DNA from: a virus
Length of the DNA: 64,000 nucleotides
Strand: one strand, 5' to 3'
Virus record (IMG/VR): IMGVR_UViG_3300047476_000982
Coordinates: 1 to 64,000 of that record
Numbering within the stretch: position 1 is the first letter of the stretch; each line of letters begins with the position of its first letter. A program made the translations under genes and the position numbers. The notes under the pieces were generated by a model that worked only from the letters and a program-made list of their open reading frames with translations, did not search any database and was not told where the DNA came from. Positions 29,698 through 51,323 of the stretch are shown in pieces.

Positions 29698-31779
29698 CTA
29701 AGAAAGATGTTTCTTAATGGCTTTTATTACTTCTTCTCCTGATATTGTTTTACTGCATTCAAATTGTCTTTGAGTTCCTTTATGTTTTGGACACCAATTC
29801 CAATCTCCTGGATCTAATTGATGTGTATTAAAGCATCCTCTACAAAATCCATCTTTTGTATATATTCTAATGGCGTCTTCAAATTCAGTTATAGGATCAG
29901 AGAATCCAGATATAATACATGTTTTTGTTCCTAGTGCCCAACTAAGCCAACTTAATCCACTACTAATACCAATAAACATTTTTGATTTTTGTAATATTTC
30001 AATAGTAGATTCAATACTTGTATCAGAAAGATATTCAACTCCTTTAGGATTAGAATTGCCCATATATCCATCTTCTTCTTTTGATAAAATTATAACTCTA
30101 TATCCTTTAGATTTTAGATGATCAACTACTTTTTGCCATCCAGTTTTATTATTCCAATATTTAGCTTGAGCTGTACTATGTACTGCTATTGATATGATCT
30201 TTTCTTTCTTTATATTTTTATCAACTGTTATTCTAGGTCTAAGTTCTTTATATTCTAAACCTAAAATATCTGTTGCTGTTTGTTGTAGCGGTATATTTTT
30301 AAAGTCTCTAGGATTTTTATTATGATCAATAGTTCCATTTTGATTATAGAACCATCCTATAGTATACATTGCATAAAGATTATTTACAGGTTCTCCTGGT
30401 TTAGCAAACTCAAATTGTGGATATTCTTTTTCAAAAAAATGATTCCAAAATGTTGATGTTATTATTTTACAATTATGCTTTTTTTGAAACTCTTCTATAT
30501 AAGGAAACCATGCTAGAGTATCACCTAGTGATTTAGAGTCTAATGCAATATAGACTCTTTTATCTTTTAAGTCTAAATTATATTCATATTCATGAATTCC
30601 ATCTAATGCTTTTATTTTCCAATCAACAAAACTTTGCTTGCTAGCTTTAATCCAACAGTTAGAAGATATTTTGCCAGAGTGTAAAACTTGATTTGTTTTA
30701 TTATCTGTAAAAGATACATCATAATCTAATTTTTTTCCTCCTACAATTTCAAAGAATGCACCTTGAATAAAATTAATATTAAATTGAGGAATAGGTTCTT
30801 TTGGTGGGATAGCTAATATTTGTGTACTTTCATAACCTTGTATAAGTTGATCTTTCATAGTATTGGAATATTTTTTTACTAGCTCTTTTGTTCTATTCAT
30901 CCACGATAATTCAGATGCGGTTGTTTTAGCTAATTTAGAATATCTAAGGTATTTTATTGGACTTATTAATTTAGATATAATTTCTGCTATTTGATCTGCA
31001 TTTCTTTCTACTTTAATTAATCCTTTTAATTCATTATTGTCTTCATAAGTTCCTACTACAGGAAGTCCTGATGCCATTGCTTCAAGTAGAGTTAAATTAG
31101 GATGTCCAGCCTCTAATATTGAAGCATGAACAAATATGCTATGTTCTTTATATAAGTCTTTTAATTCGTCTTCAGTTAAATCATAAAGAATAGTAAGTTT
31201 TTTATAATCAGAAGGAAACTTTTCAAAATAGTTTTTATTATTACTAGGCCCAGCTATAGTAATAGGAAGGTCTAATTGTTTAGCGGCTTCAATTGCATAA
31301 CTAAAGCCTTTTCTATCTTCAGATTGATCATGGATAAATCCATTATTAGCTACGCATAAAAGTTTATGCTCTTTAATTCCTGATGGTATAAAGTATTCAG
31401 TATTTACTCCATGTGAAAAGTATTCAGGAATTCCTTCAAAGTAGTCTACTAAAAATTTAGCTGGTACAAATGACTTTTGGGCATTCTTTATAGCCTGTAA
31501 GTTTTCTTTATATACACTAGAATCTTTACCATATAGATAAGCATGGTGATCATGCATAGTGAAATAATATGGAATGCCTCTCTCATGCGCCAGGTTTGCT
31601 AGATTAGCCACGTGTATGTGAACTATATCATAATCATTTACCTCGTCCAGATATGAAATCCTGGCATCGTGGCCTAGTTTTAAAAGACAATTATGTGTCT
31701 CCCATATAATCTTTTCTACAGCACCCCAACCATTAGGTGGGATAGGAATTAAACCTGGAGTGACATTAATTATTTTCAT
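29698..31779 (-). CDS. Two-domain glycosyltransferase: N-terminal GT4 plus C-terminal Aah/TibC (BAHT)-like protein O-glycosyltransferase
   Basis: GT4: PIPPNGWGAVE and E.GHPNLTLLEAMASGLPVV. C-terminal half: SLGDTLAWFPY, FIGISSGLSWLSWA, ISGFS and the Cys cluster CRGC-x13-C-x11-C (WCPKHKGTQRQFEC). Confidence 0.85.
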   Translation of the reverse strand: MKIINVTPGLIPIPPNGWGAVEKIIWETHNCLLKLGHDARISYLDEVNDYDIVHIHVANLANLAHERGIPYYFTMHDHHAYLYGKDSSVYKENLQAIKNAQKSFVPAKFLVDYFEGIPEYFSHGVNTEYFIPSGIKEHKLLCVANNGFIHDQSEDRKGFSYAIEAAKQLDLPITIAGPSNNKNYFEKFPSDYKKLTILYDLTEDELKDLYKEHSIFVHASILEAGHPNLTLLEAMASGLPVVGTYEDNNELKGLIKVERNADQIAEIISKLISPIKYLRYSKLAKTTASELSWMNRTKELVKKYSNTMKDQLIQGYESTQILAIPPKEPIPQFNINFIQGAFFEIVGGKKLDYDVSFTDNKTNQVLHSGKISSNCWIKASKQSFVDWKIKALDGIHEYEYNLDLKDKRVYIALDSKSLGDTLAWFPYIEEFQKKHNCKIITSTFWNHFFEKEYPQFEFAKPGEPVNNLYAMYTIGWFYNQNGTIDHNKNPRDFKNIPLQQTATDILGLEYKELRPRITVDKNIKKEKIISIAVHSTAQAKYWNNKTGWQKVVDHLKSKGYRVIILSKEEDGYMGNSNPKGVEYLSDTSIESTIEILQKSKMFIGISSGLSWLSWALGTKTCIISGFSDPITEFEDAIRIYTKDGFCRGCFNTHQLDPGDWNWCPKHKGTQRQFECSKTISGEEVIKAIKKHLS

Positions 31780-34700
31780 CTAAGAACAAAAATATTATTT
31801 AGTGATTCTATATTATTTTTATTCACTATATAAGATTTAGAATTTTTATCATTCATACTAATTTCTATTTCAATATCTTCACTATCTAAATCAAATATTT
31901 TATAATCATGAGAATTATCTCCTAATACTTTTTGATAAAAAGTTTCTTTTTTGCCATTTTTATTTATAGTAATTTTTGATATATTTTCTTTACTAGAACT
32001 ACAATTCCATGTAACTATTGCAAATAAGTTATTATTTACTTCTGCGTTTCTTTCGTCTTCATATTTTTTATTATCAGAAACTTTAAATACAGAAGAGAAA
32101 AATCCGTCTATTATAGAATCAGATTCTGCAGGCGAAGTTACTGAATTCCAATACGTTTTTGGAAACTCTCTTTCTAAATCTTCAGGGGTTTTAACTATTA
32201 TATCTTCTAAACCTTTCTTTTTTATAATTCTAAGTAAAAAGTCTTCGACTAATATAAAGTCATTATGCTTACTATTTAAATAAAATTTAGTATTTATATA
32301 ATCTTTTTCTGTATTAATTTTTGGCATTATTTTTGTAAAATAATCTAAATCAAAATACCACAATTGGAAAGACAAATACTTTTCTTCATTCACATAAATA
32401 AATCCTTTTTTATTTTTCTCTTCAGTTTCAATAATTAAATTATTTATGTTTTCTATGTTTTTTATTATAGAATCATATTCTATTCTAATAAATTTTGTAT
32501 ATCCTAAAGACTTAGCTAAATTAGTAGTATGATATAAATTAGAAAGTACAGATAGTCCATGTTTTTGAGATGCTTTATTTGAAAAGCAAAAATATTTTTC
32601 GGCATCACCATACCATAATCCAATTAAATCATTTGTATTATATTCTTTTTCAAATAATCTATTATTTTTATCGTACACTAAATAATCAATACTATCTATT
32701 ATAGATTTATCAAAATCACTATTAGTAACTACCATAATAGGTAATCCTAATTTTTTAATATTTAAAATAGATTCTTTAAAAGTAGAAAGGCAATGATCAT
32801 TATGAAAAAAAGCATCTATAATTACTATAGGATTTTGTTTCGCTTTTCTTTTTGCATATATAGTACCTATTACAGAATCTTCATATCTGTGTTTTATACT
32901 ATCATTATTTAATGAGTTTTGATCTCTTATTTGATCTATTTCAAATCCTTTTGAAGATAATTTATTTACTAATTTAGAAACTTTCTTATTTTGATTATCA
33001 TGAAACTCTATTAAAAAGCCATCTATAACATCAAATACTTCATCTTCTAATTCTTCAATAATTTCATATTCGGCTCCTTCAATATCCATTTTAACTAAAG
33101 ATACTCTATCAATATTATTCTGTTTAATAAATGTTTTTAAAGATATTGCTGGAACTACTATTTCTTCTAATGAATTTGAATGTATTTCTAAATGCTCTTT
33201 AGAAAGACTTCCTATAGTAGTATTTGTAGGATCTATATAAAATTTAAGATCTTCATCTTTAGTATAAACTGCTTTATCTAGTATTTCTATATCTAAATTT
33301 TGAGTAACACTTTTTAAGTTAATTAAAGAATCTTGATTTGGTTCAAATGCATAAATCTTTTTAACTCCTTTATTTGCACATAAAAGAGAAAATAATCCAC
33401 TATTAGCTCCAATATCAAAAACTGTATCTAAATTATCTAATTCATAACAGTCGTATTTTTTAGATAAAAACATTTCATTGTAATTATTAAATAGACAATC
33501 AAATGGATTATTTAAATTTAATGCGACATCTTTTTTTACAGTTTCTTTTATAAATAAATCTTTAGAATATAAAAGTTCATTTTCTAAATTATAAAATTCA
33601 ATTACTAAAGTACCAACGACTGGATCTCTTACGAAGTCTAAAGATTGCACAGGAATTGGTACTATCCACCACGCAGAGCCATTAACAAACTCAGCATTAA
33701 ACCAATACATTGGTGCATTAGAATCTTTTTCTTTTATTGATACTTTATATTTACTAGGCTCGTGTTTTTTATATGTAATATGAATTTTATTCTCTGATGG
33801 ATTTATTGATATATCAAATATTTCGTCTATTTTATTTTCTTGCATTCCTAATTTATTTAATATCAATTTTATATTTTGTTCTTTATTATTAAAATCTAGA
33901 TAATTTATATTACTAAATTTATTAAAATAATTTAAATAAACATCTAGATTAAAAATAAGTGATGGTGTTTTCCAACTAATAGCCTCTCTAATTACCAGAG
34001 GCATTGTTTCTTTATCAGTGGCATGGCCTCTAGAAGTAAATAAAAATAGATCAGCCATTTCAAAAAAAGTATCTACATCATCTCGTTCTCCCCACCATTT
34101 ACAATTACTAGGAAATTCTTTCATTAAAGGTTGCCAATAATCTTGAAAATTATCTGCTTGATTTCCTATAAAGTGAAATTGAATAGGATAGTCTTTAAGC
34201 ATTCTAGCATACTCAATAACTTCTGCTTGATTCTTTCTAGGAGTAAATAATCCTACGTTTATAACATGTTTTTTATTAGGATCTAAACCTAATTTATTTA
34301 ATAATTCTTGTCTAGTATAAGTTTTAGTTTTATATTCTATGGGATATTCTACTAATTGTATTGGAATATTTAATGGTTTATAAGTCTCTACTTGATATTG
34401 ACTTACCATCATAAATTTGTCTGGAAAGTATATTTTTCTATTTATGTCAAAACTTGAATCGTGAGATGTTTCAATTATTTTATATGTTCTATTTATTGAA
34501 TAAAATTTATCTGCAATATCACTAGGCATAAACATTTCAGGGATTTCTTGAAGGTGTATTATGTCTGGATTATATTCTTCAATCAATTTAAATAAATGGT
34601 GTTTATCTTGATCTAGTGTTACTAATCTTTTACCTAAAATATTTTTAATTTTATTTCTTTGAACTACAAGATTACCTCCTGTAATGTCATCCCACTCTAA

Positions 34701-34802
34701 ACAATATATAGAATGTTTTTTATGTAAAGCCTCTATTTGTTTATAAAGATATTGAGGCATTCCACCTGTAGAAAGGTGAGGAGCAATAAAAAATATCGTC
34801 AT
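31776..34802 (-). CDS. Multidomain protein: GT4 glycosyltransferase + FkbM-family methyltransferase + uncharacterised C-terminal domain
   Basis: PHLSTGGMPQY, NVGLFTPRKNQ and DLFLFTS..E..PLVIREA (GT4); FDIGANSG, YAFEPN and VKMDIEGAE (FkbM); ATGA overlap with the next gene. Confidence 0.85.
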   Translation of the reverse strand: MTIFFIAPHLSTGGMPQYLYKQIEALHKKHSIYCLEWDDITGGNLVVQRNKIKNILGKRLVTLDQDKHHLFKLIEEYNPDIIHLQEIPEMFMPSDIADKFYSINRTYKIIETSHDSSFDINRKIYFPDKFMMVSQYQVETYKPLNIPIQLVEYPIEYKTKTYTRQELLNKLGLDPNKKHVINVGLFTPRKNQAEVIEYARMLKDYPIQFHFIGNQADNFQDYWQPLMKEFPSNCKWWGERDDVDTFFEMADLFLFTSRGHATDKETMPLVIREAISWKTPSLIFNLDVYLNYFNKFSNINYLDFNNKEQNIKLILNKLGMQENKIDEIFDISINPSENKIHITYKKHEPSKYKVSIKEKDSNAPMYWFNAEFVNGSAWWIVPIPVQSLDFVRDPVVGTLVIEFYNLENELLYSKDLFIKETVKKDVALNLNNPFDCLFNNYNEMFLSKKYDCYELDNLDTVFDIGANSGLFSLLCANKGVKKIYAFEPNQDSLINLKSVTQNLDIEILDKAVYTKDEDLKFYIDPTNTTIGSLSKEHLEIHSNSLEEIVVPAISLKTFIKQNNIDRVSLVKMDIEGAEYEIIEELEDEVFDVIDGFLIEFHDNQNKKVSKLVNKLSSKGFEIDQIRDQNSLNNDSIKHRYEDSVIGTIYAKRKAKQNPIVIIDAFFHNDHCLSTFKESILNIKKLGLPIMVVTNSDFDKSIIDSIDYLVYDKNNRLFEKEYNTNDLIGLWYGDAEKYFCFSNKASQKHGLSVLSNLYHTTNLAKSLGYTKFIRIEYDSIIKNIENINNLIIETEEKNKKGFIYVNEEKYLSFQLWYFDLDYFTKIMPKINTEKDYINTKFYLNSKHNDFILVEDFLLRIIKKKGLEDIIVKTPEDLEREFPKTYWNSVTSPAESDSIIDGFFSSVFKVSDNKKYEDERNAEVNNNLFAIVTWNCSSSKENISKITINKNGKKETFYQKVLGDNSHDYKIFDLDSEDIEIEISMNDKNSKSYIVNKNNIESLNNIFVLR

Positions 34803-34845
34803 AACTAAATATAACTAAAAAATTTAAATAATAAAATTTATCTTA

Positions 34846-35121: not shown

Positions 35122-35133
35122 ATTAAATTATTT

Positions 35134-36429: not shown

Positions 36430-36430
36430 A

Positions 36431-39391
36431 TTATGCTTTTGTATAAGTTATATGTATAGAAAGCAATTCTGCTGTTGCTGCTAATGTATCACCAGCTGCT
36501 GCAGGGTTTCTATACGCTCTAAATTGAACAAAATTTCCAGCTGCTGGAGTACCACCAATAGTAATTGCTGATGTTGCTGCTGATATATTAACATCATCAT
36601 TAGCTTGGTTTGCGTCTGTTACTTCTTGTGCTGTGCCAAATGCTTGATCTAAAGCATCGCCATCAGCGTAAGCCCGCGCTTGTAGTCCCCAAACTACAGA
36701 GTTTGTTGATGCATTACCTGCAACCCAATAAAATTTTGCAGTAATAGTTCCACCATTATAATCTGATGGCATTGGTATTGCCCAGTTAGCATATAATGTT
36801 GTAGCACCATCTGCAAATCCTAAATAATAAAAATTAACTTGGTTAGTTGTTGTTTGTGTTGTTTGCGGAGGTTGACAACCGTTAGTTAATGAAGGCCATC
36901 CACCTGCTGCTGTAAGTATTATTGTACCAGTAGTTGATCCACCACCTCCTGGTGTAGCAATTGTTAAAATATTACCTGATGAATCAAATGCAAGTACACC
37001 AGCTGCAGTACCAGTAAATGATGTGGTTGTAGTATACTGAGGTAGTTGTATTTGACCAGTATTTTTTAGTATTAATGTGTTTGTACTTGGTGCAAGTCCA
37101 GTAGAAGTTCCATATCCAATCACAAATTGACTTGTCGCATAATAAGTGAAATATGGATTACTACTTGCAAATCCATGTCCTGTAAAAAATCCTCCAGAAG
37201 TTCTTTCTAATGTTATACCAGCTGCATCTCCACCAGTAACTACTTGTAATTTACCAGAAGTAGGACTTGTAGTATTTATACCTAAGTTACCAGCATCTGA
37301 TAGAGTCATTCTTTTTTGAGTACCTTGAGTATAGAAAGTTAAACCCGATGCTTGGTTAGTTCTGATTTGGAGTTCTCCAGCCGCATATAAAATAGAGTTG
37401 GCATTACTTGCTGCTCCAAAATATAAACTGCCTCCTGTAGTTCCATCTCCTATAATAGCAATATTACCACTTCCTGATATATCTAGTGTTGCTCTTGGAG
37501 AAGTTACAACTCCTACACCTACATTACCTCTAAGTACAGTCCGTGTGATACTATTATTACCTAAAGTAGCAGTATTTGAACCGTGTCCAACATTATTAGA
37601 TCCAATTACTATTTCATTTTGTCCATTACTTTGAGAAGCATATGCAGCATATCCTACATATACTGAACTATCTGCTGTTGTATTTTCTGTAACTCCACCT
37701 CCTAGATATCCTCCTGCACCATTTCCTATTGCTACATTTTGAGTTCCATCTGTATTTCCTACTAAAGCACTATTTCCTATAGCTGTATTAAATGAACCTC
37801 CTGTATTAGCAAATAAAGCGCCGTCACCAAGAGCAACATTTTCTGCTCCATTAGTATTATTTCTCATTGCTGTAGCTCCTACAGCCGTATTAGAATATCC
37901 TGTAGTACTTCCTGATAAAGCAAACCATCCTATTGCGGTATTTCTATCAAGAGATCCCGCTGATCTGGCTAATGCTGCAAGACCAAAAGCAGTATTTGAA
38001 GTAGTCGTATCATTTCCTGTACCTATAGTAAGGCCTGCTACTTGTATATTTCCACTACTTGTAATATTACCAGTTACTGTTAAAGTAGTTCCATTAAATG
38101 TTAAATTACTTTCTACAGTTGCATTTGGAGCAGTACCATTAAGAGTTATTACACCATTATCTGTAGTTCCAGTTAAAGTTAGCGTGCCGCTAGTTCCACT
38201 CGATCCAGAAGAACCTGATGATCCTGTATTACCAGAAGTTCCTGAACTACCTGATGAACCTGAACTACCAGAAGATCCAGGAGAGCCAGTTTGACCTGAT
38301 GAACCTGAACTACCAGAAGTTCCTGAACTACCAGGTGAACCAGTTTGACCTGATGAGCCTGAACTACCAGAAGTTCCAGAAGTACCTGGAGCTCCTGTTT
38401 GTCCAGATGAACCTGATGAACCTGAACTACCTGAAGATCCATTAGCGCCTGAAGTACCTGAGCTGCCACTAGATCCAGATGATCCATTTGCTCCAGAGGT
38501 ACCAGAAGATCCTGAATTTCCAGATGAGCCAGAAGAACCGCTAGATCCACTTGAACCGTTAGCACCACTAGTACCTGATGAGCCACTAGATCCATTTGCT
38601 CCGGAAGTTCCTGAGGATCCTGATGACCCTCGAGTACCTGATGTACCAGATGAGCCAGAAGAACCGCTTGATCCGCTAGAGCCGTTTGCTCCACTTGTTC
38701 CACTAGATCCTGCAGTACCGCTAGATCCTGCGCTTCCAGACGAGCCAGAAGATCCATTTGCGCCTGATGTACCTGCGCTACCAGATGAACCACTTGATCC
38801 ATTAGCCCCACTTGTTCCAGAAGAGCCGGCACTACCTGAAGATCCTGAGCTACCAGATGAACCTGACGACCCATTGGCTCCACTTGTTCCAGAAGATCCT
38901 GATGATCCACTAGAACCGGAAGTGCCAGATGAACCAGCTGCAGCTACCCAAGTGCTACCATTATATCTATAAATGTTATTATCTGAAGTATTGTAATATA
39001 TTTGACCTGCAGCAGTACCTGTTGGATTTGATGCAGCTACGGGTATTCTTAATGATCCTGTTAAATTAGTACTACCTGTTACAGTAAAACTACCACTAAT
39101 ATCTAATGTAGCATTTAATAAAGTTTCTTTACCTACACCTACTGTTGATTGAGAAACAAATAAAGCTCTTTGACCAAATTGACCAATACGTACTGTATTG
39201 TCAGAAAAAGCTTCTATAATAGGAAGGCCCGCTGCTGTATTGACTGAGAATAACGAACCAGAAAGAGAGTCATCAATCTGGAATAAACGACCAGATGTTC
39301 CATCTACTGAAAATACTTCTGACCCAGAAGAATTAATGTTGGCTGATCCTGAGACCAGCAGGCCGTTTTTTACTTTAAATTCGTTTGGCAT
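36431..39391 (-). CDS. Collagen-like tail fibre (986 aa) with YadA-like head repeats and a C-terminal beta-sandwich
   Basis: ~250 aa of (S/T-S/T-G)n; NTA(I/V/F)G..A(L/M) 14-mer repeats; W-rich C-terminal domain. Confidence 0.75.
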   Translation of the reverse strand: MPNEFKVKNGLLVSGSANINSSGSEVFSVDGTSGRLFQIDDSLSGSLFSVNTAAGLPIIEAFSDNTVRIGQFGQRALFVSQSTVGVGKETLLNATLDISGSFTVTGSTNLTGSLRIPVAASNPTGTAAGQIYYNTSDNNIYRYNGSTWVAAAGSSGTSGSSGSSGSSGTSGANGSSGSSGSSGSSGSAGSSGTSGANGSSGSSGSAGTSGANGSSGSSGSAGSSGTAGSSGTSGANGSSGSSGSSGSSGTSGTRGSSGSSGTSGANGSSGSSGTSGANGSSGSSGSSGSSGNSGSSGTSGANGSSGSSGSSGTSGANGSSGSSGSSGSSGQTGAPGTSGTSGSSGSSGQTGSPGSSGTSGSSGSSGQTGSPGSSGSSGSSGSSGTSGNTGSSGSSGSSGTSGTLTLTGTTDNGVITLNGTAPNATVESNLTFNGTTLTVTGNITSSGNIQVAGLTIGTGNDTTTSNTAFGLAALARSAGSLDRNTAIGWFALSGSTTGYSNTAVGATAMRNNTNGAENVALGDGALFANTGGSFNTAIGNSALVGNTDGTQNVAIGNGAGGYLGGGVTENTTADSSVYVGYAAYASQSNGQNEIVIGSNNVGHGSNTATLGNNSITRTVLRGNVGVGVVTSPRATLDISGSGNIAIIGDGTTGGSLYFGAASNANSILYAAGELQIRTNQASGLTFYTQGTQKRMTLSDAGNLGINTTSPTSGKLQVVTGGDAAGITLERTSGGFFTGHGFASSNPYFTYYATSQFVIGYGTSTGLAPSTNTLILKNTGQIQLPQYTTTTSFTGTAAGVLAFDSSGNILTIATPGGGGSTTGTIILTAAGGWPSLTNGCQPPQTTQTTTNQVNFYYLGFADGATTLYANWAIPMPSDYNGGTITAKFYWVAGNASTNSVVWGLQARAYADGDALDQAFGTAQEVTDANQANDDVNISAATSAITIGGTPAAGNFVQFRAYRNPAAAGDTLAATAELLSIHITYTKA
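38185..38942 (-). repeat. Gly-X-Y coding repeat (Ser/Thr-rich)
   Basis: Gly at every third codon throughout; synonymous codons scrambled. Confidence 0.9.
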
Positions 39392-39425
39392 AGTCTATAC
39401 TGTTTTCACTTTCCAACAGCTATGA

Positions 39426-39433
39426 ATAAATAT
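39426..39433 (-). promoter_or_regulatory. ATATTTAT motif followed by a hairpin leader
   Basis: ~35 nt upstream of the ATG at 39391. Confidence 0.55.
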
Positions 39434-39434
39434 A

Positions 39435-39692: not shown

Positions 39693-39695
39693 AGT

Positions 39696-40367: not shown

Positions 40368-40371
40368 AACT

Positions 40372-40497
40372 TTATAGATTATTTATCCAATTTTGACATT
40401 CTTCATAAGTAACTCCCCAATATACTTGATTATTATTTTCATCAACTACATAAAAAGGAGGAAGTGTTTCTACTGATCCACTTATAAAAATATTCAT
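40372..40497 (-). CDS. Small 41-aa protein missing from the ORF track (MNIFISGSVETLPPFYVVDENNNQVYWGVTYEECQNWINNL)
   Basis: ATG at 40495-40497, TAA at 40372-40374; fills the gap between two LamG genes. Confidence 0.6.
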   Translation of the reverse strand: MNIFISGSVETLPPFYVVDENNNQVYWGVTYEECQNWINNL

Positions 40498-40510
40498 ATT
40501 TTGTTCTATA

Positions 40511-41158: not shown

Positions 41159-41160
41159 AG

Positions 41161-41829: not shown

Positions 41830-41840
41830 ACACCTTTATT

Positions 41841-44800
41841 TTATAATAAGTTAGCAATTGATTTTACTGTCCAAACACCAGATGATGTAAATTGAAGTTG
41901 CACATTTGCTCCTGATATACCTACTGCAAATAAAGCAGAGTTGGTATTTCCTATATCAGTAGTTGTTACTTCAGTAAATCTTACGGTTGTTCCATTCCAA
42001 ACACTCATTACTTGACCTGATCTTGCATTTGATCCAGAAGCTATTGTATAGTTATAGAATGCAGATGTTGCAGAACCTGTGTTTATTGATGATACTACTA
42101 CTGCACCAGTTGTTGTAATAGATGATGTAGAATTAAATTCTGCTATACCTAAATCTAATGGTCCACCATTTATTAATACAGATCCTGTAAATTGGTGAGT
42201 ATTAGTAGTCAGCGTACCAAATCTAGTTGATCCAGTTATAAAGCTTACACTTGATGTTACTGTTTGAACACTAAGTGTCTGAGCAGTTATTGTACCTGTT
42301 GAAGTTACATTACCAGTTACTGTTAATGTGCTACCATCAAATGTTAAGTTTGCTTCTGCGTTTGCAGTATTAGTCGTACCTAGAGATGTTAATACCCTAT
42401 TGTCAACAGGGTTAGTAATTGTATTGAATCCTGTACCTGAAGTTCCTGAGCTGCCAGATGATCCGGAAGATCCACTACTACCATTTGCACCTGAAGTTCC
42501 ACTTGATCCTGATGTACCTGAGCTACCTGAAGTACCTGATGAACCAGAACTACCATTTGCTCCAGACGTGCCTGATGATCCTGAGCTACCTGATGAACCA
42601 TTTGCCCCACTAGTGCCTGATGAACCGCTTGATCCATTTGCACCTGAAGTTCCACTTGATCCAGATGAGCCAGAGCTACCATTAGCTCCAGATGTACCTG
42701 ATGAACCGCTTGATCCATTTGCACCTGAAGTTCCACTTGATCCAGATGAGCCAGAGCTACCATTAGCTCCAGATGTACCTGATGAACCGCTAGATCCGTT
42801 AGCACCTGAAGTTCCTGATGAACCGGAAGAACCGCTAGAACCAGATGATCCATTTGCTCCAGATGTGCCTGATGAACCCGATGTACCTGATGAACCACTT
42901 GAACCATTAGCTCCTGATGTACCTGATGAACCAGAAGATCCCCGAGTACCTGAAGTTCCTGAACTACCACTAGTACCATTTGCTCCAGATGTGCCTGATG
43001 ATCCTGATGTACCGGAACTACCATTTGCACCTGATGTGCCTGAACTACCAGAACTACCATTAGCTCCACTAGTTCCACTTGATCCTGATGTACCTGATGA
43101 TCCTGATGTACCTGATGAACCACTTGAACCATTAGCTCCACTAGTTCCTGATGATCCAGATGTGCCTGAAGATCCAGAAGTTCCAGATGACCCAGAAGTT
43201 CCGCTTGAACCAGCAGCCGCTAACCAAGTAGTACCATTATATCTGTAGATATTATTGTCTGTACTATTATAATATATTTGACCTGCTGATGTACCAACTG
43301 GATTAGTTGTAGATACGGGTATTCTTAAAGATCCTGTTATAGAAACAGATCCTGTGAATTGATGCGTATTAGTTAATAAAGATCCATTAATACTTGAGCC
43401 AGTAACATATTCTCTAGATGAAGTTACTTCTTGTACATTTAAAGTTTGCGCTATAATATTTCCAACTACAGTTAAAGTAGTTCCATCAAAAGTTAAATTA
43501 GCTTCAGCATTTGCTGTATTAGTCGTACCTAGAGATGTAAGTATTCTATTATCTGCTGGGTTAGTAATAGTATTAAAACCAGTACCTGAAGTTCCTGAGC
43601 TACCTGATGATCCACTAGAACCAGAAGAACCACTTACTCCACTTGTTCCACTAGATCCTGCAGTACCGCTAGATCCACTAGTTCCTGAAGAGCCACTTGA
43701 ACCATTTGCGCCAGATGTACCTGAGCTACCTGAAGTACCTGATGAACCAGAACTACCATTTGCACCTGATGTACCAGAAGAACCACTTGAGCCGCTTGAT
43801 CCATTTGCACCTGAAGTTCCACTTGATCCTGACGTACCGCTAGATCCAGAAGTTCCAGATGAGCCAGAAGATCCATTTGCTCCACTTGTTCCAGAAGAAC
43901 CAGATGTACCTGATGAACCACTTGAACCATTAGCTCCACTAGTTCCACTTGTACCAGATGAACCAGCGCCAGATAACCAAGTAGATCCATTATAACGATA
44001 AATGTTATCGTCAGTCGTATTATAATATACTTGACCTTCTTCTGTACCAGTAGGAGTTGAAGCGTATACTGGGAATCTTAGTGAGCCTGAAATAATTGTT
44101 GAACCAGATATTGTTAATCCATTTGTATATCTACCTGAACCAGATACGTCAAAGCTAAATTGAGGATTAGGTTGATTAATACCTATTCTACCATTAGCAG
44201 AGCCAGAGAATGGATTCGCAGTATATGTTGTATAGTTACTATTTACTCCTTGCCAAGCAGATCCTGTAGCAAATATTAAACCTCCTATATTGATGCTATC
44301 TTGAGCATTTGTTGGTAATGAAATATTTGTACCTATTATAATGTTGTTTCTTCCTAGAGTAGAGTTTCTCCCAGAGAATGAACCTATAATTATAGAATTA
44401 GAACCACTAGTTAAAGAATTGCCAGTGCCATTTCCTATTATAATTGATGAAATACTATTATTAGACAAACTAAATGCATCAAACCCAATAGCAATACTAT
44501 AGCTACCTGTTTTTGCAGAATACGCTGTAGAATTTCCTATAAATGTAGATCTAGTTGCTCCTTTAACTCCGTATGCAGCACTCTCTCCTATAGCAACTAT
44601 TTCAGAAGAATTTACTAATCCATTTCCTGAAAGCCATCCAATTAAAACGGATTCTTGGCTATTAATTGTATTTAGTCCTGCATATGCGCCTACTACTACA
44701 TTATAAAAATTATTGTCTGAATTTTTTCCAGCACTAGCTCCTATTAAAACTGCATCTGATGAAGCTGTACTATTAGCTGCTACTGAATCTCCTATTAACA

Positions 44801-47800
44801 CATTATCTCCTGAATTAGAAAATACTACAATAGATCCACTATGTATATTATTTCCTATAGCAACACTTCCATAATTATAAACATCTGTTTTATATGATGT
44901 TCCAACAGTAGAATATATAGTACTACCACTAACAGCTAAAGGATAAGATGAACTAATAGCATTTCTTGCCCAACTAGCAGTTCCGAATAACGAACTTGTT
45001 ATAGAAGTAGCAGAAATATTATCTACATTAGTAATGTCATTTCCATCAAGAGATAAATTTCCTTGCATTGCTCTAGTACCATCAACTAACAAATATTGTT
45101 GATGATCATCTGCATCTAACCCTAATAAGTTTCCATGTAAAGTAACTACGCCTGTTCTAGAAGGCGATGCAAAACCAAGCCTAGGTCTTTCATCAATTAT
45201 AGATTGAATACTAGCACTATCTGGGGTTACTACTATGGAAGCAAATAAAGCAAATTGCTCTGTTACAAAGCTTGGAGGAGTCGGTAAAGAACCTGCTTCA
45301 GCAGCTTCAACATTATCATATAAATCTTGACCATAAACAAGGAAATACCTTGTTGTAGGAAGACCTATCATATATAATGAATGCTTAGTATATTTTCCAG
45401 ATGGTATTGATTGCAAAGTACCAAAACTAGCACTATCGTATAAAGTATTACTTGCAGTAGTTTGACTTGCAACTCTAGTAAATCCAGATCCACCAACACC
45501 TGTACCAGCTGATCCGCTTCTATAAAAAGCATCAAAAGTTATAGGAGACGCACCTGTAGTACTTATTCTATGTTCGGAGAAGAAATATATTGCAGAAGTA
45601 ACGTCTAAACTTCTAGATACAATTCCTTGAGTAGTTGTTGCTCCTGATTGGAATATAGGTCCTAATGCATCTCTAAATAATCTGTCTACATAGTTGCTAT
45701 AGTGGTGAGCATCTAAAGGTGTTCTATCTATATAAACTATAGAAGTTGAATCAGTAATAACTCTTCCTAAAGGAACGTTAAATCTAGAGTTAGGTTCAGT
45801 TGCAGAAGAGGTTAATATACCAGAACCATTATAATAAACATATCTATCAGATGAAGTAGGCATTGTTATTTGCCTAGATTCTGTAGTTGTTCCTCTAGTA
45901 TTAATTTTAAATAAATTATGATTAGCATACCCACCTTGACTCATTACGTATCCTACAGACTCTGCTACTTGAAGAGTTAATGCACTAGCAGTACTTAAAG
46001 CACCGCCATCAATAATACCCATCGTACTAGCAAAAGATATTAGATCACCAATTTCTGTTTTAACAGCAGACGGTTCTCTAACCCAATCAAGTCCTCCATA
46101 AAGTACGATTGATGCAGTATTAATTCCAGCACCACCGCTAGGAATTAAAGTGATATTGCCTCTAGGATTAGCAAATATACTTGCAGAAATAGAACTAGAA
46201 ACAGTTAAAGATCCTGTAATTATTACGTTTCCAGGAATAGTAACATTAGTTCCATCATCAGTAATTTGAGAGTCTCCGATATGTTCTCCGCTCTCTCCTG
46301 AATATCCTTTTGTAAGTCTATTTAAAGTTATTTGAGTTTCATTACCTAAATTATTATAGGTTTCAGGACCCATAATTCCAATAGAACTAGTCGGTGATGA
46401 TCCAGCAGGTTGTTGATGGATCATTATCCATCTATCTTTAGTGGAATCAAATAACCAAGATCCTGATCTTTGAGGGCTTGATCCTGAATCAATAACAGCT
46501 AATCCACCATAACGTACAGATGGAGTATTAGAGTTTACAGTAATTAAATTAGTTCCAATATTAAGTGTAGATTCACTTACATATGTAATAGAAGCAGATC
46601 CTAAAACAGTTAAATTTTGTAATATAGTTAAACTTCCTGATACTGTAGTAATGCTACCAGAAACTGTTAATACTGACGAAGCTGTTGCGGCATTTGTAGT
46701 ACCATCTGATACTAAAACTCTATATAATGCTGGATTATTTATTGTATTAAATCCTGTTCCACTAGAGCCAGATGATCCAGAACTACCTGAAGAACCTGAC
46801 GATCCACTTGAACCAGAAGATCCGTTTGCTCCACTAGTTCCACTAGATCCTGACGAACCTGTGGAACCAGAACTACCAGAAGTACCAGTAGAACCTGAGC
46901 TACCGCTAGTACCTGTTGATCCACTAGAACCACTTGATCCAGATGATCCAGCACTACCTGATGAACCAGATGAACCGTTTGCTCCGCTTGTACCAGAACT
47001 ACCGGAAGATCCAGAACTACCACTAGTACCTGTTGATCCGCTTGATCCAGATGAGCCTGCAGTACCACTAGTACCAGATGAACCTGAGCTACCAGATGAA
47101 CCATTAGCTCCTGATGTTCCACTAGATCCGCTTGTGCCAGTAGATCCACTTGAGCCTGAAGATCCAGAACTACCGCTAGATCCTGCTGTACCAGAAGTAC
47201 CACCACCAACAATTAATGATGCTTCAAACCAAGTTCCGTTTCCTGAAGAATTTATATTTTGAGATGTAGGATTTCCTGTATAAGCAGTAACTTCTACATA
47301 ATCTGTTGAACCATTAAAATAAATTATTGCATCTATTTCTTGTGCATAACCTGAGCCAGATAGAATTTGAGTTTGATGTATGGCAATTTGAGTTGTTCCA
47401 TTTTTTCTAAATTGGATATTGCTTTGGTTATTAGTTACAGAACCGGCATCCCACCAAACTTGGGCATTAGTTATATAATAACCTGCAACAGTTGGTTGAA
47501 TTTTATTAGAAGTTAACCAATTATTAGGATCAAAATCATCGCCAAATGTTACAACAGTATCAACACCATTTGATATAGTTTGCGAACCTCCTTGTTTAGT
47601 ACCTCTAACAATATAGTTAGATGCTACAAGTCCTGTTGGTGAAGTACCTGATGAACCTGCAGTACCTGATGAACCACTAGAACCAGAAGTACCAGAGTTA
47701 CCAGACGTACCACTAGATCCACTCGAGCCATTAGCTCCGCTAGTTCCTGCAGATCCACTTGAACCTGATGTCCCTGAACTTCCAGAAGATCCAGAAGAAC

Positions 47801-50800
47801 CATTAGCACCACTAGTTCCTGCTGATCCAGAACTACCTGATGAACCACTAACACCTGATGATCCAGATGATCCGCTTGATCCAGATGAGCCTGAGGAACC
47901 GCTTACTCCTGACGTACCTGAACTACCGGAAGATCCAGAACTACCATTTGCTCCTGATGTACCTGATGTACCACTAGTTGCTGTAGTAAATGATGTTCCG
48001 TTTATAGTTAATGATCCAGTAATATTTACAGAGCCTGTAAATTGATGAGTATTAGATAATTCACTACCAAATACTGTTGAGCCTGTAATATATTCTTGAG
48101 AAGATGTAATATTCTGTACAATAAGTGTTTGCGCTGTTATTGTTCCAGAACTTACAATACTTCCAGTTATACTAAGAGTATTATTAGAAAAAGATAAATT
48201 AGTTGATGCAGTTGCTGCATTTGTAGTGCCGTCTGATAATATTATTCTATTAGCTCCAGGATTATTGATGGTATTGAATCCTGTACCTGAAGTTCCTGAA
48301 GTACCTGATGATCCAGATGATCCGCTTGAACCATTAGCTCCTGATGTTCCACTACTGCCAGAAGTACCAGTTGATCCACTACTACCGCTTGTACCTGTTG
48401 AACCAGATGTGCCGCTAGAACCAGATGATCCATTTGCTCCGCTTGTTCCAGAAGATCCAGAACTACCTGCAGATCCTGAGCTACCAGATGTTCCACTAGA
48501 TCCGTTTGCTCCAGATGTCCCAGAACTTCCAGATGAACCACTTGAACCAGAAGTACCATTTGAACCATCGGCACCGGAAGTACCTGACGATCCTGAACTA
48601 CCTGAAGTTCCTGATTCTCCACTTGTGCCACTAGATCCTGAGCTGCCAGATGATCCACTAGAACCAGATAAACCTGAAGTACCTGATGAACCACTAGTTC
48701 CACTCTCTCCGCTTGTACCTGAAGACCCTGAACTACCTGATGTACCAGAAACTCCACTACTTCCAGAAGACCCTGATGTTCCCGCACTTCCTGATGAGCC
48801 GCTAGTACCGCTCTCTCCACTAGTTCCTGAGCTTCCTGATGTTCCAGAAGTACCCGATTCTCCAGAACTTCCACTAGATCCACTTGTTCCTGTAGAACCA
48901 GATGAACCAGAACTACCGCTTGAACCAGATGATCCAGTTGTACCAGAACTACCTGATGATCCAGAGCTGCCAGATGAACCATTAGCTCCCGATGTTCCAC
49001 TTGTACCTGAAGTCGCAGCAGTAAATGATGAACCATTTATAGTTAATGATCCAGTAATATTTACAGAACCTGTAAATTGATGAGTATTTGAAAGTTGAGA
49101 TCCAAAAACTGTTGATCCAGTTACATATTCAACACTAGAAGTTATTGTTTGAACAATTAAAGTTTGTGCAGTAATTGTATTTTGGATTAATGCATTTGAT
49201 GCAGTTATTGCTCCATTAATAGAAATATCTCCTAAATTATTTATTGATCCTGTAACTGATAAAATATTATTATCATAAGTTAAATTAGACGATGCAGTCG
49301 CTGCATTTGTTGTACCATCAGACAATATTATTCTGCCTTGACCAGCATTGCTAATAGTATTAAATCCTGTTCCTGAAGATCCTGCTGTACCGCTTGAGCC
49401 TGTAGAACCAGATGAGCCACTAGATCCGCTAGTGCCTGCAGATCCACTTGAACCTGCCGATCCTGAGCTGCCAGATGATCCGCTTTCCCCACTAGTGCCA
49501 GATGAACCAGAACTACCCGAAGTGCCAGATGTTCCAGAGCTTCCGCTAGATCCAGTTGAGCCAGAACTTCCAGATGTTCCTGATTCTCCACTAGTTCCTG
49601 AACTACCTGATGATCCAGAGCTACCAGACGTTCCCGACTCTCCACTAGTGCCAGATGATCCAGAGGAACCTGTACTACCAGATGATCCTGTAGAACCAGA
49701 AGATCCCGATGTACCTGTAGACCCAGAAGATCCTGATGTACCAGAACTTCCAGATGAACCTGAGGATCCAGATGTTCCACTTTCCCCACTAGTACCAGAA
49801 GATCCTGATGTACCTGTACTTCCAGAACTTCCTGATGATCCACTAGATCCAGAAGTACCTGAGCTACCGCTTGAACCTGAACTACCAGATGATCCAGCAG
49901 TTCCAGAAGTTCCTGATGTAGCTGCGGTGAAAGACGATCCATTTATACTTAATGATCCAGTAATATTTACTGAACCAGTAAACTCATGAGTATTAGATAA
50001 TTGAGAGCCGAATATAGTTGACCCAGTTACATATTCAATTGATGATGTAATTGTTTGTGCTACTATAGTTTGTGCAGTTAATGTTCCTCTAACTAAAAAA
50101 TTATCTGCAGAAGATGCTGTATCCGCTAATGTTGCAGATGCTGCTTTATTAGTATATTGAAATAAACCAGTAGATGGATTTACAGCAACTAAAGAGCCTG
50201 ATAATGAATTATTTTGAGCAATAACAGGATTGTAAATACTACCACTTATATTAATTGATCCAGTTAATTCATGTTGATTATTTGGATCTAATCTAAATTT
50301 TCTATTAGATATACTATCTTCTCCTCCAACAAAAAATTCAAGAGGGTAATTAGAAGCATTACCTATATATAAATAATTTCCTGTAGAATATAAATAGGCA
50401 TCACTTCCTAATCCAACCCCTCCAGTAACATTATAATTAGTGCTGTTAATACCTAAATTAATAAAGTTAGTAGTTTCAGTAGCATTGTCATTTTCAGCTA
50501 CTATATCTGAAGAAGCTTCACTTCCTGTTGATCTATTTTGTAAACTAAGTTGAGAGTAATTATCAACATCACCTTTTATTTGAACTAAATTATATGTTTC
50601 TGTACCTTGTATTCCTTCTATCCAAAGAGAAGCAGGATTAAATGAATCATATTGACTTGAGTTAATACTAATAGTACCTTGATTATGAATCCATAATCTA
50701 GCATTTTCAGTAGTATCAAAACCACCATTAAAGAAAATAATTTGTTTACCTGAAACAGCATTACCTATTAGTAAATTTTCACCTGTAGAATATAAATAAG

Positions 50801-51323
50801 CATCTAAAGCACTACCAATATATTGATTAGCATTATATCCAGAACCATTAATACCTAAATTAACATAATTAGCTTCTTCGTTTCCATTATCAGCAGTCGC
50901 TACAATATCTGAAGACGCACTAGGTCCTGAATTAAAATTTTTTATATTTAATTGAACATAACCATCTACATCAGCATGACCTGATATTAAATTATACGAA
51001 TTTGTTAAAGAGTTTACTAAAAAAGTTTCAATAGCTTCAGGATGTAATGATCCTGTTGCGTTTATAGCAGTAAAAGATCCTGATTGATAAATCGTACTAG
51101 AAACTAACGCTTCTGATCCAGAAAATACAGATAAATAAAATGAAGATCCACTAATAAAACCTGAACCTATAGTAACTATTTCTTCACCTGCAGAACCAGA
51201 TCTTTTCATAAACGCTTTACCATCATAGGTATTAAGCGCAATTTCACCAAGTTGTAAAGAAGCTGTATCAGGTATTCTACCTGGTACTGCGCTTCTACGC
51301 AGTTTCAGATACTGGTTTGACAT
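41841..51323 (-). CDS. Giant modular tail fibre (3160 aa): Mtd-N-like N-terminus, six Gly-Ser/Thr collagen-like blocks, YadA-like repeats
   Basis: LRRSAVPGRIP...GEIALNTYDGKAF N-terminus; six G-X-Y blocks; repeated NTHQFTGS and TGFNTI modules. Confidence 0.85.
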   Translation of the reverse strand: MSNQYLKLRRSAVPGRIPDTASLQLGEIALNTYDGKAFMKRSGSAGEEIVTIGSGFISGSSFYLSVFSGSEALVSSTIYQSGSFTAINATGSLHPEAIETFLVNSLTNSYNLISGHADVDGYVQLNIKNFNSGPSASSDIVATADNGNEEANYVNLGINGSGYNANQYIGSALDAYLYSTGENLLIGNAVSGKQIIFFNGGFDTTENARLWIHNQGTISINSSQYDSFNPASLWIEGIQGTETYNLVQIKGDVDNYSQLSLQNRSTGSEASSDIVAENDNATETTNFINLGINSTNYNVTGGVGLGSDAYLYSTGNYLYIGNASNYPLEFFVGGEDSISNRKFRLDPNNQHELTGSINISGSIYNPVIAQNNSLSGSLVAVNPSTGLFQYTNKAASATLADTASSADNFLVRGTLTAQTIVAQTITSSIEYVTGSTIFGSQLSNTHEFTGSVNITGSLSINGSSFTAATSGTSGTAGSSGSSGSSGSSGTSGSSGSSGSSGSTGTSGSSGTSGESGTSGSSGSSGSSGTSGSSGSTGTSGSSGSTGSSGSTGSSGSSGTSGESGTSGSSGSSGSSGTSGESGTSGSSGSTGSSGSSGTSGTSGSSGSSGTSGESGSSGSSGSAGSSGSAGTSGSSGSSGSTGSSGTAGSSGTGFNTISNAGQGRIILSDGTTNAATASSNLTYDNNILSVTGSINNLGDISINGAITASNALIQNTITAQTLIVQTITSSVEYVTGSTVFGSQLSNTHQFTGSVNITGSLTINGSSFTAATSGTSGTSGANGSSGSSGSSGSSGTTGSSGSSGSSGSSGSTGTSGSSGSSGESGTSGTSGSSGTSGESGTSGSSGSAGTSGSSGSSGVSGTSGSSGSSGTSGESGTSGSSGTSGLSGSSGSSGSSGSSGTSGESGTSGSSGSSGTSGADGSNGTSGSSGSSGSSGTSGANGSSGTSGSSGSAGSSGSSGTSGANGSSGSSGTSGSTGTSGSSGSTGTSGSSGTSGANGSSGSSGSSGTSGTSGTGFNTINNPGANRIILSDGTTNAATASTNLSFSNNTLSITGSIVSSGTITAQTLIVQNITSSQEYITGSTVFGSELSNTHQFTGSVNITGSLTINGTSFTTATSGTSGTSGANGSSGSSGSSGTSGVSGSSGSSGSSGSSGSSGVSGSSGSSGSAGTSGANGSSGSSGSSGTSGSSGSAGTSGANGSSGSSGTSGNSGTSGSSGSSGTAGSSGTSPTGLVASNYIVRGTKQGGSQTISNGVDTVVTFGDDFDPNNWLTSNKIQPTVAGYYITNAQVWWDAGSVTNNQSNIQFRKNGTTQIAIHQTQILSGSGYAQEIDAIIYFNGSTDYVEVTAYTGNPTSQNINSSGNGTWFEASLIVGGGTSGTAGSSGSSGSSGSSGSTGTSGSSGTSGANGSSGSSGSSGTSGTAGSSGSSGSTGTSGSSGSSGSSGTSGANGSSGSSGSAGSSGSSGSSGSTGTSGSSGSTGTSGSSGSTGSSGSSGTSGANGSSGSSGSSGSSGSSGSSGSSGTGFNTINNPALYRVLVSDGTTNAATASSVLTVSGSITTVSGSLTILQNLTVLGSASITYVSESTLNIGTNLITVNSNTPSVRYGGLAVIDSGSSPQRSGSWLFDSTKDRWIMIHQQPAGSSPTSSIGIMGPETYNNLGNETQITLNRLTKGYSGESGEHIGDSQITDDGTNVTIPGNVIITGSLTVSSSISASIFANPRGNITLIPSGGAGINTASIVLYGGLDWVREPSAVKTEIGDLISFASTMGIIDGGALSTASALTLQVAESVGYVMSQGGYANHNLFKINTRGTTTESRQITMPTSSDRYVYYNGSGILTSSATEPNSRFNVPLGRVITDSTSIVYIDRTPLDAHHYSNYVDRLFRDALGPIFQSGATTTQGIVSRSLDVTSAIYFFSEHRISTTGASPITFDAFYRSGSAGTGVGGSGFTRVASQTTASNTLYDSASFGTLQSIPSGKYTKHSLYMIGLPTTRYFLVYGQDLYDNVEAAEAGSLPTPPSFVTEQFALFASIVVTPDSASIQSIIDERPRLGFASPSRTGVVTLHGNLLGLDADDHQQYLLVDGTRAMQGNLSLDGNDITNVDNISATSITSSLFGTASWARNAISSSYPLAVSGSTIYSTVGTSYKTDVYNYGSVAIGNNIHSGSIVVFSNSGDNVLIGDSVAANSTASSDAVLIGASAGKNSDNNFYNVVVGAYAGLNTINSQESVLIGWLSGNGLVNSSEIVAIGESAAYGVKGATRSTFIGNSTAYSAKTGSYSIAIGFDAFSLSNNSISSIIIGNGTGNSLTSGSNSIIIGSFSGRNSTLGRNNIIIGTNISLPTNAQDSINIGGLIFATGSAWQGVNSNYTTYTANPFSGSANGRIGINQPNPQFSFDVSGSGRYTNGLTISGSTIISGSLRFPVYASTPTGTEEGQVYYNTTDDNIYRYNGSTWLSGAGSSGTSGTSGANGSSGSSGTSGSSGTSGANGSSGSSGTSGSSGTSGSSGTSGANGSSGSSGSSGTSGANGSSGSSGTSGSSGTSGANGSSGSSGTSGSSGTAGSSGTSGVSGSSGSSGSSGSSGTSGTGFNTITNPADNRILTSLGTTNTANAEANLTFDGTTLTVVGNIIAQTLNVQEVTSSREYVTGSSINGSLLTNTHQFTGSVSITGSLRIPVSTTNPVGTSAGQIYYNSTDNNIYRYNGTTWLAAAGSSGTSGSSGTSGSSGTSGSSGTSGANGSSGSSGTSGSSGTSGSSGTSGANGSSGSSGTSGANGSSGTSGSSGTSGANGTSGSSGTSGTRGSSGSSGTSGANGSSGSSGTSGSSGTSGANGSSGSSGSSGSSGTSGANGSSGSSGTSGANGSSGSSGSSGTSGANGSSGSSGTSGANGSSGSSGSSGTSGANGSSGSSGTSGANGSSGSSGSSGTSGANGSSGSSGTSGSSGTSGSSGTSGANGSSGSSGSSGSSGTSGTGFNTITNPVDNRVLTSLGTTNTANAEANLTFDGSTLTVTGNVTSTGTITAQTLSVQTVTSSVSFITGSTRFGTLTTNTHQFTGSVLINGGPLDLGIAEFNSTSSITTTGAVVVSSINTGSATSAFYNYTIASGSNARSGQVMSVWNGTTVRFTEVTTTDIGNTNSALFAVGISGANVQLQFTSSGVWTVKSIANLL
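42430..49926 (-). repeat. Six Gly-X-Y coding repeat blocks, approx. 42430-43212, 43579-43970, 46752-47206, 47640-47980, 48280-49020 and 49368-49926
   Basis: Gly at every third codon; X/Y almost all Ser/Thr with Ala-Asn, Glu-Ser and Val-Ser variants; ~3.27 kb in total. Confidence 0.9.
42616..42791. repeat. Exact 81-nt tandem duplication (~2.2 copies)
   Basis: 42616-42696 is identical to 42697-42777 and continues for 14 nt. Confidence 0.9.

Follow-up and report, generated by a model that had tools for sequence, protein, structure and literature searches.

We analysed a stretch of viral DNA of 64,000 nucleotides (positions 1 to 64,000 of the IMG/VR record IMGVR_UViG_3300047476_000982; hereafter called the window) that carries two adjacent glycosyltransferase genes, P0001 and P0002, amid genes for collagen-like fibres. 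P0001 (29698-31779, minus strand, 693 amino acids (aa)) and P0002 (31776-34802, minus strand, 1008 aa) have reading frames which overlap by ATGA, as read directly from the sequence, a configuration of translational coupling. The genes on both sides are structural, and a preliminary description of this DNA as a coupled glycosyltransferase gene pair within a fibre cluster was thus borne out. The phage is a distant T4-like myovirus, and the window represents its late structural region. Fibre genes span about 16.5-51.3 kilobases (kb) and comprise a 2071-aa protein, fibres of 893, 800, 986 and 3160 aa, and three proteins with ConA-like lectin domains. All open reading frames (ORFs) of at least 200 aa in the window lie on the minus strand, except for frames nested within the repeat-rich fibre genes. 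A megablast search with 12 kb of the window against the phage collection gave no match.

Both cassette proteins are composed of several domains. P0001 starts with a GT4 domain of the GT-B fold (residues 1-320; 30820..31779, minus strand), recognized by Pfam Glyco_trans_1_4 (1.1e-11) and Glycos_transf_1 (2.3e-10) and by the glycosyltransferase family phrog_33732; a GT4 domain of this type is adjacent or fused to the BAHT domain in most related loci. Residues 334-693 (29698..30780, minus strand) form a BAHT (bacterial autotransporter heptosyltransferase) domain, i.e., a protein O-glycosyltransferase domain of the TibC/Aah type (TIGR04414). P0002 consists of a second GT4 domain (residues 1-325; 33828..34802, minus strand; Pfam Glycos_transf_1, 4.9e-14) with 35-89% identity across related cassettes, a 110-residue linker, a methyltransferase domain of the FkbM family (residues 436-640; 32883..33497, minus strand; PF05050, 6.6e-17) and a C-terminal part of 368 residues. 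The FkbM domain passes the cut-offs of two models (TIGR01444, 94.7 bits vs 37.7; PF05050, 62.6 bits vs 22.7) and, in relatives, either has a gene of its own or follows the BAHT domain in a fusion protein. For the C-terminal part (residues 641-1008; 31779..32882, minus strand), neither a Pfam match nor any sequence-family match was found. Its AlphaFold2 model, built from an alignment of 13 homologues, predicts a GT-A-like fold plus a beta-sandwich (predicted local distance difference test 77.7, predicted template modelling score 0.70). Foldseek matched the model to GT-A transferases with E-values of 2e-5 to 5e-4 and probability 1.0, the template modelling (TM) score normalized to the target being only 0.3-0.6; among the matches are the PBCV-1 capsid glycosyltransferase and a collagen galactosyltransferase, a likeness at the superfamily level only. 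D71, N74 and D137 of this part are invariant in the alignment, and one invariant Asp lies within an EYD motif. The cassette is accordingly modelled as four predicted glycosyltransferase domains and one predicted methyltransferase domain.

Residues 339-690 of P0001 score 301.1 bits against the equivalog model TIGR04414, which has a cut-off of 200, and the TibC structures 4RAP/4RB4 align with the domain at 215 bits. The models for lipopolysaccharide (LPS) heptosyltransferases (heptosyltransferase I/RfaC) match P0001 weakly, with about 24 bits compared to cut-offs of 185-437. TibC is a cytoplasmic enzyme forming a dodecameric ring; it uses ADP-heptose as donor, modifies Ser but not Thr, and is also active on synthetic peptides (PMC4358343). 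Its catalytic base D110 corresponds to Asp420 of P0001, and the donor contacts T226, K230 and W305 are kept as Thr536, Lys540 and Trp611. Cys646, Cys649, Cys663 and Cys675 form a putative iron site, as they align with the cysteines C339, C342, C358 and C370 of the four-Cys iron finger (1Fe-0S) of TibC, an insertion used for recognition of the protein substrate (PMC4358343). No variation was seen across 53 distinct phage homologues at the positions of Asp110, Lys230, Trp305 and the four Cys, whereas the Thr226 position is occupied by Thr or Ser. Other positions differ. Arg286, which contacts adenine in TibC and is required for full activity (PMC4358343), is replaced by Thr592 in P0001. The Pro300 position, which sets the heptose stereoselectivity of TibC and is Ser in Aah (PMC4358343), is Ser606 as in Aah, but is variable within the phage-containing clade described below. 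The thumb positions (Phe265/Val266 in TibC) are Tyr572/Met573 and vary across the family, and Phe368 is kept. Thus, the label “BAHT-like” given in the preliminary description holds at the level of a curated model and of the active site: by homology, the BAHT domain of P0001 is a true relative of TibC and Aah in which the residues that bind phosphate and sugar are intact, and the predicted fold and chemistry of a protein Ser-O-glycosyltransferase are supported. No partner autotransporter of the AIDA type is present in the window.

To describe the putative acceptors, a tract was defined as an uninterrupted Gly-X-Y run of at least five triplets. The fibres of the window contain eight such tracts with 1,368 residues in 456 triplets, in line with the approximately 1,350 residues of Gly-Ser/Thr-Ser/Thr repeat noted earlier for the same three fibres. 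Position X is mainly occupied by Ser (261 triplets), Thr (134) and Ala (40), and position Y by Ser (363), Asn (41) and Thr (19). Proline occurs three times in the 1,368 residues; the tracts therefore lack the X and Y positions rich in proline or hydroxyproline by which collagen is recognized. Most of the repeat belongs to the 3160-aa fibre (41841..51323, minus strand; Pfam Collagen, 3.2e-136), the proposed main acceptor, whose six Gly-Ser/Thr-Ser tracts (42429-43211, 43578-43964, 46752-47201, 47640-47972, 48279-49007 and 49365-49913) sum to 1,077 residues with 83-93% Ser/Thr in X and Y and no proline. The same short cap motifs frame every tract of this fibre. The 986-aa fibre (36431..39391, minus strand; Pfam Collagen, 2.5e-36, and tail-fibre PHROGs), likewise a proposed acceptor, has one tract of 252 aa (38180-38935) followed by YadA-head-like repeats. 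In the 800-aa fibre (27251..29653, minus strand), a short tract of 39 aa (29408-29524) with 62% Ser/Thr was found, together with cap motifs in common with those flanking the tracts of the 3160-aa fibre. Since four different Ser codons are heavily used and mixed within the tracts, the repeat is maintained by selection on the protein and does not represent a recent array of DNA slippage.

If enzyme and repeat belong together, they should be found together elsewhere, as the preliminary description had proposed to check. In a scan of viral contigs, 110 relatives were found, and 80 loci were retrieved and analysed. Nearly all 80 contain the same set of domains (GT4, FkbM, GT-A-like, GT4, BAHT), joined in varying fusion orders: BAHT may follow either type of GT4, FkbM may follow BAHT, and proteins of 1,200-1,500 residues combine four or more parts. 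Recurrence of one set in many different orders suggests that these domains work together. Ser/Thr-rich Gly-X-Y tracts lie at most 10 kb from the cassette in 46 of the 80 loci, amounting to at least 200 residues in 34 of those 46. Furthermore, when three longer contigs with the cassette away from fibres (G003, G004, G005) were searched over their whole length, large fibres of the Gly-Thr/Ser-Ser type were detected elsewhere in all three. The 735-kb phage LR756501 combines the cassette with 72 collagen matches, mostly Gly-Thr/Ser-Ser, in fibres the longest of which has about 3,500 residues. The Microcystis phage Mel-JY01 (PP395634) encodes, at 4750-8430, a BAHT fusion protein of 1,227 aa, annotated as methyltransferase FkbM, with Gly-Thr/Ser-Ser ORFs on either side. 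As an aside on this genome, an 805-aa plus-strand ORF full of Gly-Thr/Ser-Ser (locus L002, 635-3052) shares its DNA with a “hypothetical protein” annotated on the minus strand (739-2298), so that in the deposited record the repeat was probably assigned to the wrong strand.

The reverse search started from the repeat. Contigs were picked solely by the DNA pattern (GGN WSN WSN)x7, and 43 were searched over their whole length with the BAHT model. A BAHT was present in 18 of them, 17 times above the cut-off of the model, and in six of the nine contigs that are at least 90% complete. The other three of these nine are not exceptions, as they turned out to be false pattern matches (Gly-Ser-Cys, Gly-Cys-Ser and (GTT)n). 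Relatives of the window phage provide matched negatives: in 17 long contigs whose capsid proteins are 67-94% identical to that of the window, no BAHT was found (0/17), and collagen is absent from 15 of them, three complete genomes included. One of the remaining two ends inside a fibre gene, and the other (G059, 80% capsid identity) has collagen of the Gly-Thr/Ile-Gln type with 20-33% Ser/Thr. This fibre (locus L315, 4390-7311) contains about 850 residues of Gly-Thr/Ile-Gln without a BAHT, so that a second kind of predicted collagen without proline exists within this phage lineage. Neither BAHT nor collagen is present in Flavobacterium phage immuto, LR756508 and RM378. Both traits are present in genomes whose capsid identity to the window is 69%, 33%, about 25% or undetectable, among them a complete 66-kb phage and a 548-kb phage. 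It follows that several lineages gained and lost the two traits together.

Homologs outside of viruses were examined by a profile scan of bacterial genomes, which yielded 80 loci, 39 with enzymes of the phage-containing clade and 41 with enzymes of the classical clade. These two clades are separated in a FastTree phylogeny with a support of 100, and one side of this split holds all 50 sequences that were strictly labelled as repeat-linked. Bacterial enzymes of the phage-containing clade share approximately 34-54% identity with the window enzyme and are found in methanotrophs, Burkholderiales, Arenicellales, Acidiferrobacterales and a Bdellovibrio-like genome. A Gly-Ser/Thr-Ser/Ala tract lies at most 3 kb from the BAHT in 25 of these 39 loci and anywhere within the locus in 27, vs none of 41 with a Gly-Ser/Thr-Ser tract in the classical clade, where five of seven neighbours tested are AIDA-type autotransporters, the proven substrates. 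Reading of 12 bacterial loci showed that the proteins with the tracts are small, begin with a signal peptide or lipobox and often end in an acidic tail, and that the tract-BAHT pairs lie among ordinary chromosomal genes. The phylogeny and gene neighbourhoods thus place the window BAHT in a clade that is sister to the classical enzymes and whose members, in phages and bacteria alike, have Gly-Ser/Thr-Ser proteins rather than autotransporters encoded with them. Taken together, the co-occurrence of BAHT-like genes with Ser-rich Gly-X-Y fibres is strongly positive in both directions, in unrelated phages as well as on bacterial chromosomes. The bacterial enzymes of this clade are solitary, and the additional GT4, GT-A-like and FkbM domains are an elaboration of the phages.

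Two observations on the bacterial loci may be added. On the Methylobacter luteus chromosome (L316, 8920-11122), and also in L319-L356, a small secreted protein or lipoprotein with Gly-Thr/Ser-Ser/Ala tracts stands beside a solitary BAHT, frequently has a poly-Asp/Glu tail, and forms with the enzyme a pair among housekeeping genes; in M. luteus, the secreted protein has 287 aa of the Gly-Thr-Ala/Ser type (8920-9783) and the BAHT lies at 9824-11122. Such proteins are probably surface glycoproteins of bacteria and seem to constitute a family not described before. In L317 (8604-11137), a small ORF with (Gly-Ser-Ser)11 is located near a BAHT that is divided between two ORFs (9986-10579 and 10718-11137). 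Although this contig bears the label Paceibacteria, the neighbouring genes (transhydrogenase, mnmA, purB, secDF) look proteobacterial, and mis-binning is possible.

Based on these results, it is likely that the phage cassette O-glycosylates serines of the phage's own fibre tracts, extends the glycans and methylates them. Co-occurrence, enzyme family and active site all speak for the earlier suggestion that the phage glycosylates its own fibres, while the attachment of the sugar itself is argued from comparison. The cassette would work as an assembly line of five domains in the cytoplasm of the infected cell, with GT4, FkbM and GT-A-like domains supplied by P0002 and GT4 and BAHT by P0001. The BAHT domain would place the first sugar on Ser, probably on the Y-position Ser preceding Gly. 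This priming site is suggested because both sites of TibA mapped by mass spectrometry are likewise Ser-Gly (PMC4358343), and Ser-Gly is available at most triplets of the fibre tracts. BAHT would act while the chain is nascent or still unassembled, at the latest during formation of the trimer; action on unfolded chains fits with the bacterial partners, which are exported through Sec. The GT4 and GT-A domains would then extend the glycan, and FkbM would O-methylate a sugar. The expected outcome is a set of short, methylated O-linked glycans on a densely glycosylated, proline-free fibre of collagen-like or mucin-like character. As the preliminary description had suggested, the glycan may allow a proline-free helix to fold, shield the virion from proteases, or form a mucin-like coat. 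A structure prediction that paired the BAHT domain with 61 residues of a fibre tract (score 0.02, mark 0.32) has no bearing either way on binding.

A bolder version of this reading is conceivable, although we hold it to be doubtful. In this version, the sister clade would consist of dedicated “glyco-collagen” enzymes, whose rings thread proline-free Gly-Ser/Thr-Ser chains and set a sugar on nearly every triplet, with the glycan replacing proline or hydroxyproline in folding or stiffening the triple helix. Such proteins would represent a new class of glycosylated collagen-like filaments, serving as tail or whisker fibres in many aquatic phages and as surface lipoproteins in bacteria.

The sugar donor would be supplied by the host and may be ADP-heptose. 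No nucleotide-sugar genes were seen among the genes of the 64-kb window, in agreement with the preliminary description. Mel-JY01 and other phages encode a cytidylyltransferase-like protein close to the cassette; it was considered as an activator of sugars and rejected, as it looks like the NadR/RNA-ligase type instead.

Several points weigh against fibre glycosylation by the cassette or limit how the counts should be read. The counts do not represent independent events, since many contigs are incomplete and many loci are almost identical to one another. In one more distant phage clade, the cassette is not located beside fibres but beside genes for SbcCD/replication, a giant sheath and terminase, and there is no tract within 10 kb. 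The 636-kb uncultured phage LR756504 has a lone BAHT-like gene (457157-458227; L101) with 36% identity; no collagen-like gene was found anywhere in its genome, and no GT4 or FkbM partner in the 31-kb locus around the gene. Conversely, contig G027 (84% complete) has a Ser/Thr tract of 252 aa without a BAHT or any other part of the cassette, and is the only credible near-complete exception; a search for other cassette parts in the BAHT-less contigs G027, G045, G058 and G059 found none. The tree was calculated by FastTree alone, and the sister clade to which the phage enzymes belong is known from genes alone. With respect to the donor, gmhA and rfaE domain II gave no match above cut-off in 20 phage records. 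Within the phage-containing clade, Arg at the position of Arg286 is kept in 26 of 53 copies from phages and 12 of 39 from bacteria, i.e., in only 38 of 92 sequences, vs 39 of 41 classical enzymes. Because this adenine contact is replaced, the donor may not be ADP-heptose.

Among the alternatives, modification of the host rather than the virion has a precedent in the literature, since glycosyltransferases in the hypervariable fibre-region islands of pelagimyophages and cyanomyophages were read as remodelling the host envelope (PMC7029224). By analogy, the cassette could act on LPS core, O-antigen or capsule, e.g., against superinfection, and merely ride in a hypervariable fibre region. Folds of the GT4 and GT9-like kind are typical of LPS enzymes, the heptosyltransferase I/RfaC models do give weak matches, and the clade whose cassette is away from fibres would suit such a role. 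However, P0001 passes the protein-specific TibC/Aah model by 100 bits and stays far below the cut-offs of the LPS models, and the iron-finger insertion used by TibC for protein recognition is present. Moreover, the cassette tracks Ser/Thr-rich Gly-X-Y genes genome by genome, even in bacteria without any phage context. We therefore judge host-envelope remodelling unlikely.

Equally unlikely, in our estimation, is that the enzymes modify virion proteins outside of the Gly-X-Y tracts, for instance beta-helical or YadA-head-like fibre segments, the sheath or the capsid. TibC binds the beta-helix of TibA (PMC4358343), and both large fibres of the window contain beta-helix-like repeat blocks; one clade has the gene for a 1300-aa sheath immediately after the cassette; and capsid and tail tube are glycosylated in mycobacteriophages (PMC12363180). 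Nevertheless, the bacterial partner proteins are little more than a signal peptide, a Gly-Ser/Thr-Ser tract and a small domain or acidic tail, and the association is specific to Ser/Thr-rich tracts, as Gly-Thr/Ile-Gln collagen occurs without BAHT.

Fibres and cassette could also have been transferred together as a mobile block without any enzyme-substrate relation, or the enzymes might be inactive relics. Fibre regions are indeed exchanged as modules, and many of the counted loci are close relatives, but the linkage persists where cassette and fibres are 20-170 kb apart and in bacterial chromosomes among housekeeping genes, and the invariance of catalytic residues in 53 distinct phage copies argues against relics, which makes this explanation very improbable. 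Glycosylation of phage DNA bases as a protection from restriction, the classical role of phage glycosyltransferases, can practically be dismissed, because the enzymes showed no resemblance to DNA glucosyltransferases, the family model describes a protein O-glycosyltransferase, and the cassette is part of a late structural operon.

The surrounding genes of the window are structural. The tail sheath (12029-13786, minus strand) and the major head protein (55293-56936, minus strand) were identified; the latter shares 54.7% identity with its counterpart in Flavobacterium phage immuto and about 50% with the one in Microcystis phage Mel-JY01. A 480-aa protein with a Gly_rich_2 domain (15081-16523), which matches tail fibre assembly proteins, and the 893-aa fibre (22760-25441, minus strand) with its C-terminal S74 intramolecular chaperone domain are ordinary fibre accessories. 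Between the collagen-like fibres of 986 and 3160 aa, three small proteins of 223, 215 and 222 aa are encoded in tandem (39696-41829, minus strand); they have ConA-like lectin/Laminin_G_3 domains (PF13385 at 4.1e-21, 1.9e-3 and 1.4e-8) and match virion structural PHROGs. This lectin-fold trio beside putatively glycosylated fibres might bind the fibre glycan or sugars of the host.

Further neighbours of BAHT genes were noted in some of the viral loci. A 1,300-aa tail sheath is encoded directly downstream of the cassette in one phage clade (L058, 11140-15069; L068, 11139-15053); only its last approximately 350 residues match sheath models, following an N-terminal extension of about 950 residues. 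In L055 (6691-9903), the large subunit of ribonucleotide reductase is split by an intein and adjoins an 824-aa protein containing BAHT, with no collagen within 10 kb.

The literature searched yielded no description of BAHT enzymes tied to phages or to collagen-like repeats, Mel-JY01 included. If the proposed function is true, many environmental phages from 66 kb to 735 kb would coat their host-recognition fibres with self-made glycans, with effects on adsorption, stability, resistance to grazing and proteases, and recognition by host defences. The BAHT family would gain a second class of substrates beyond autotransporters of pathogens, and collagen-like materials that are glycosylated but free of hydroxyproline could be made by a natural route with simple genetics. 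Since enzyme-substrate pairs occur in cultured carriers, namely Microcystis phage Mel-JY01 and methanotrophs, the hypothesis is directly testable.

Glycosylated collagen-like filaments are known from other organisms. In the cuticle collagen of Riftia pachyptila, which is poor in hydroxyproline, the triple helix is stabilised by O-glycosylated hydroxy-amino acids. The analogy to glycosylated Thr in the Y position, drawn in the preliminary description, is not exact, because Thr of the window tracts is mostly in X (134 vs 19) and Ser mostly in Y (363); furthermore, Riftia attaches galactose to Thr by unrelated enzymes in a eukaryotic secretory pathway. BclA of the Bacillus anthracis exosporium forms a surface filament with collagen-like Gly-X-Thr repeats, which are densely O-glycosylated with a methylated oligosaccharide. 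In contrast to the window fibres, BclA is a non-viral protein rich in proline (GPT), and its sugars are attached to Thr by rhamnosyltransferases that are unrelated to the enzymes considered here.

Viruses which glycosylate their own particles are known as well. In the mycobacteriophages Che8, Corndog and Myrna, phage glycosyltransferases modify the phage's own capsid and tail-tube subunits (Freeman et al. 2023, as cited in PMC12363180). The proposed system is the same in that phage-encoded glycosyltransferases would act on own structural proteins in the host cytoplasm. The mycobacteriophage system, as presented there, differs in its enzyme families, its capsid and tail-tube targets and its chemical proof, whereas BAHT and the collagen-like fibre of the window are paired by their genes. 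Giant viruses have autonomous glycosylation, e.g., A64R of PBCV-1 and the collagen-modifying enzymes of mimivirus, and virus GT-A enzymes glycosylate virion proteins there (PMC4691112). The C-terminal model of P0002 resembles the folds of A64R and collagen galactosyltransferase at the superfamily level only (TM 0.3-0.6), and these systems differ in belonging to eukaryotic viruses and in having no BAHT.

The closest known counterparts are TibC-TibA and Aah-AIDA-I of E. coli (PMC4358343), with which P0001 shares a homologous catalytic domain including the beta-barrel, GT-B core, catalytic Asp, the Thr/Lys/Trp contacts and the four-Cys finger. In both cases, a cytoplasmic enzyme hyper-glycosylates Ser of a long, repetitive surface protein encoded nearby, as is proposed here for the phage. 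The differences concern the partner, which is a collagen-like Gly-Ser/Thr-Ser tract instead of an AIDA-type beta-helix, the frequent loss of Arg286 in the clade, and the gene organization, since in phages two GT4 domains, a GT-A-like domain and FkbM accompany BAHT by fusion or coupling, and an autotransporter is absent. Because BAHT is joined to these additional domains, an oligosaccharide rather than the single heptose would be expected on the phage fibres.

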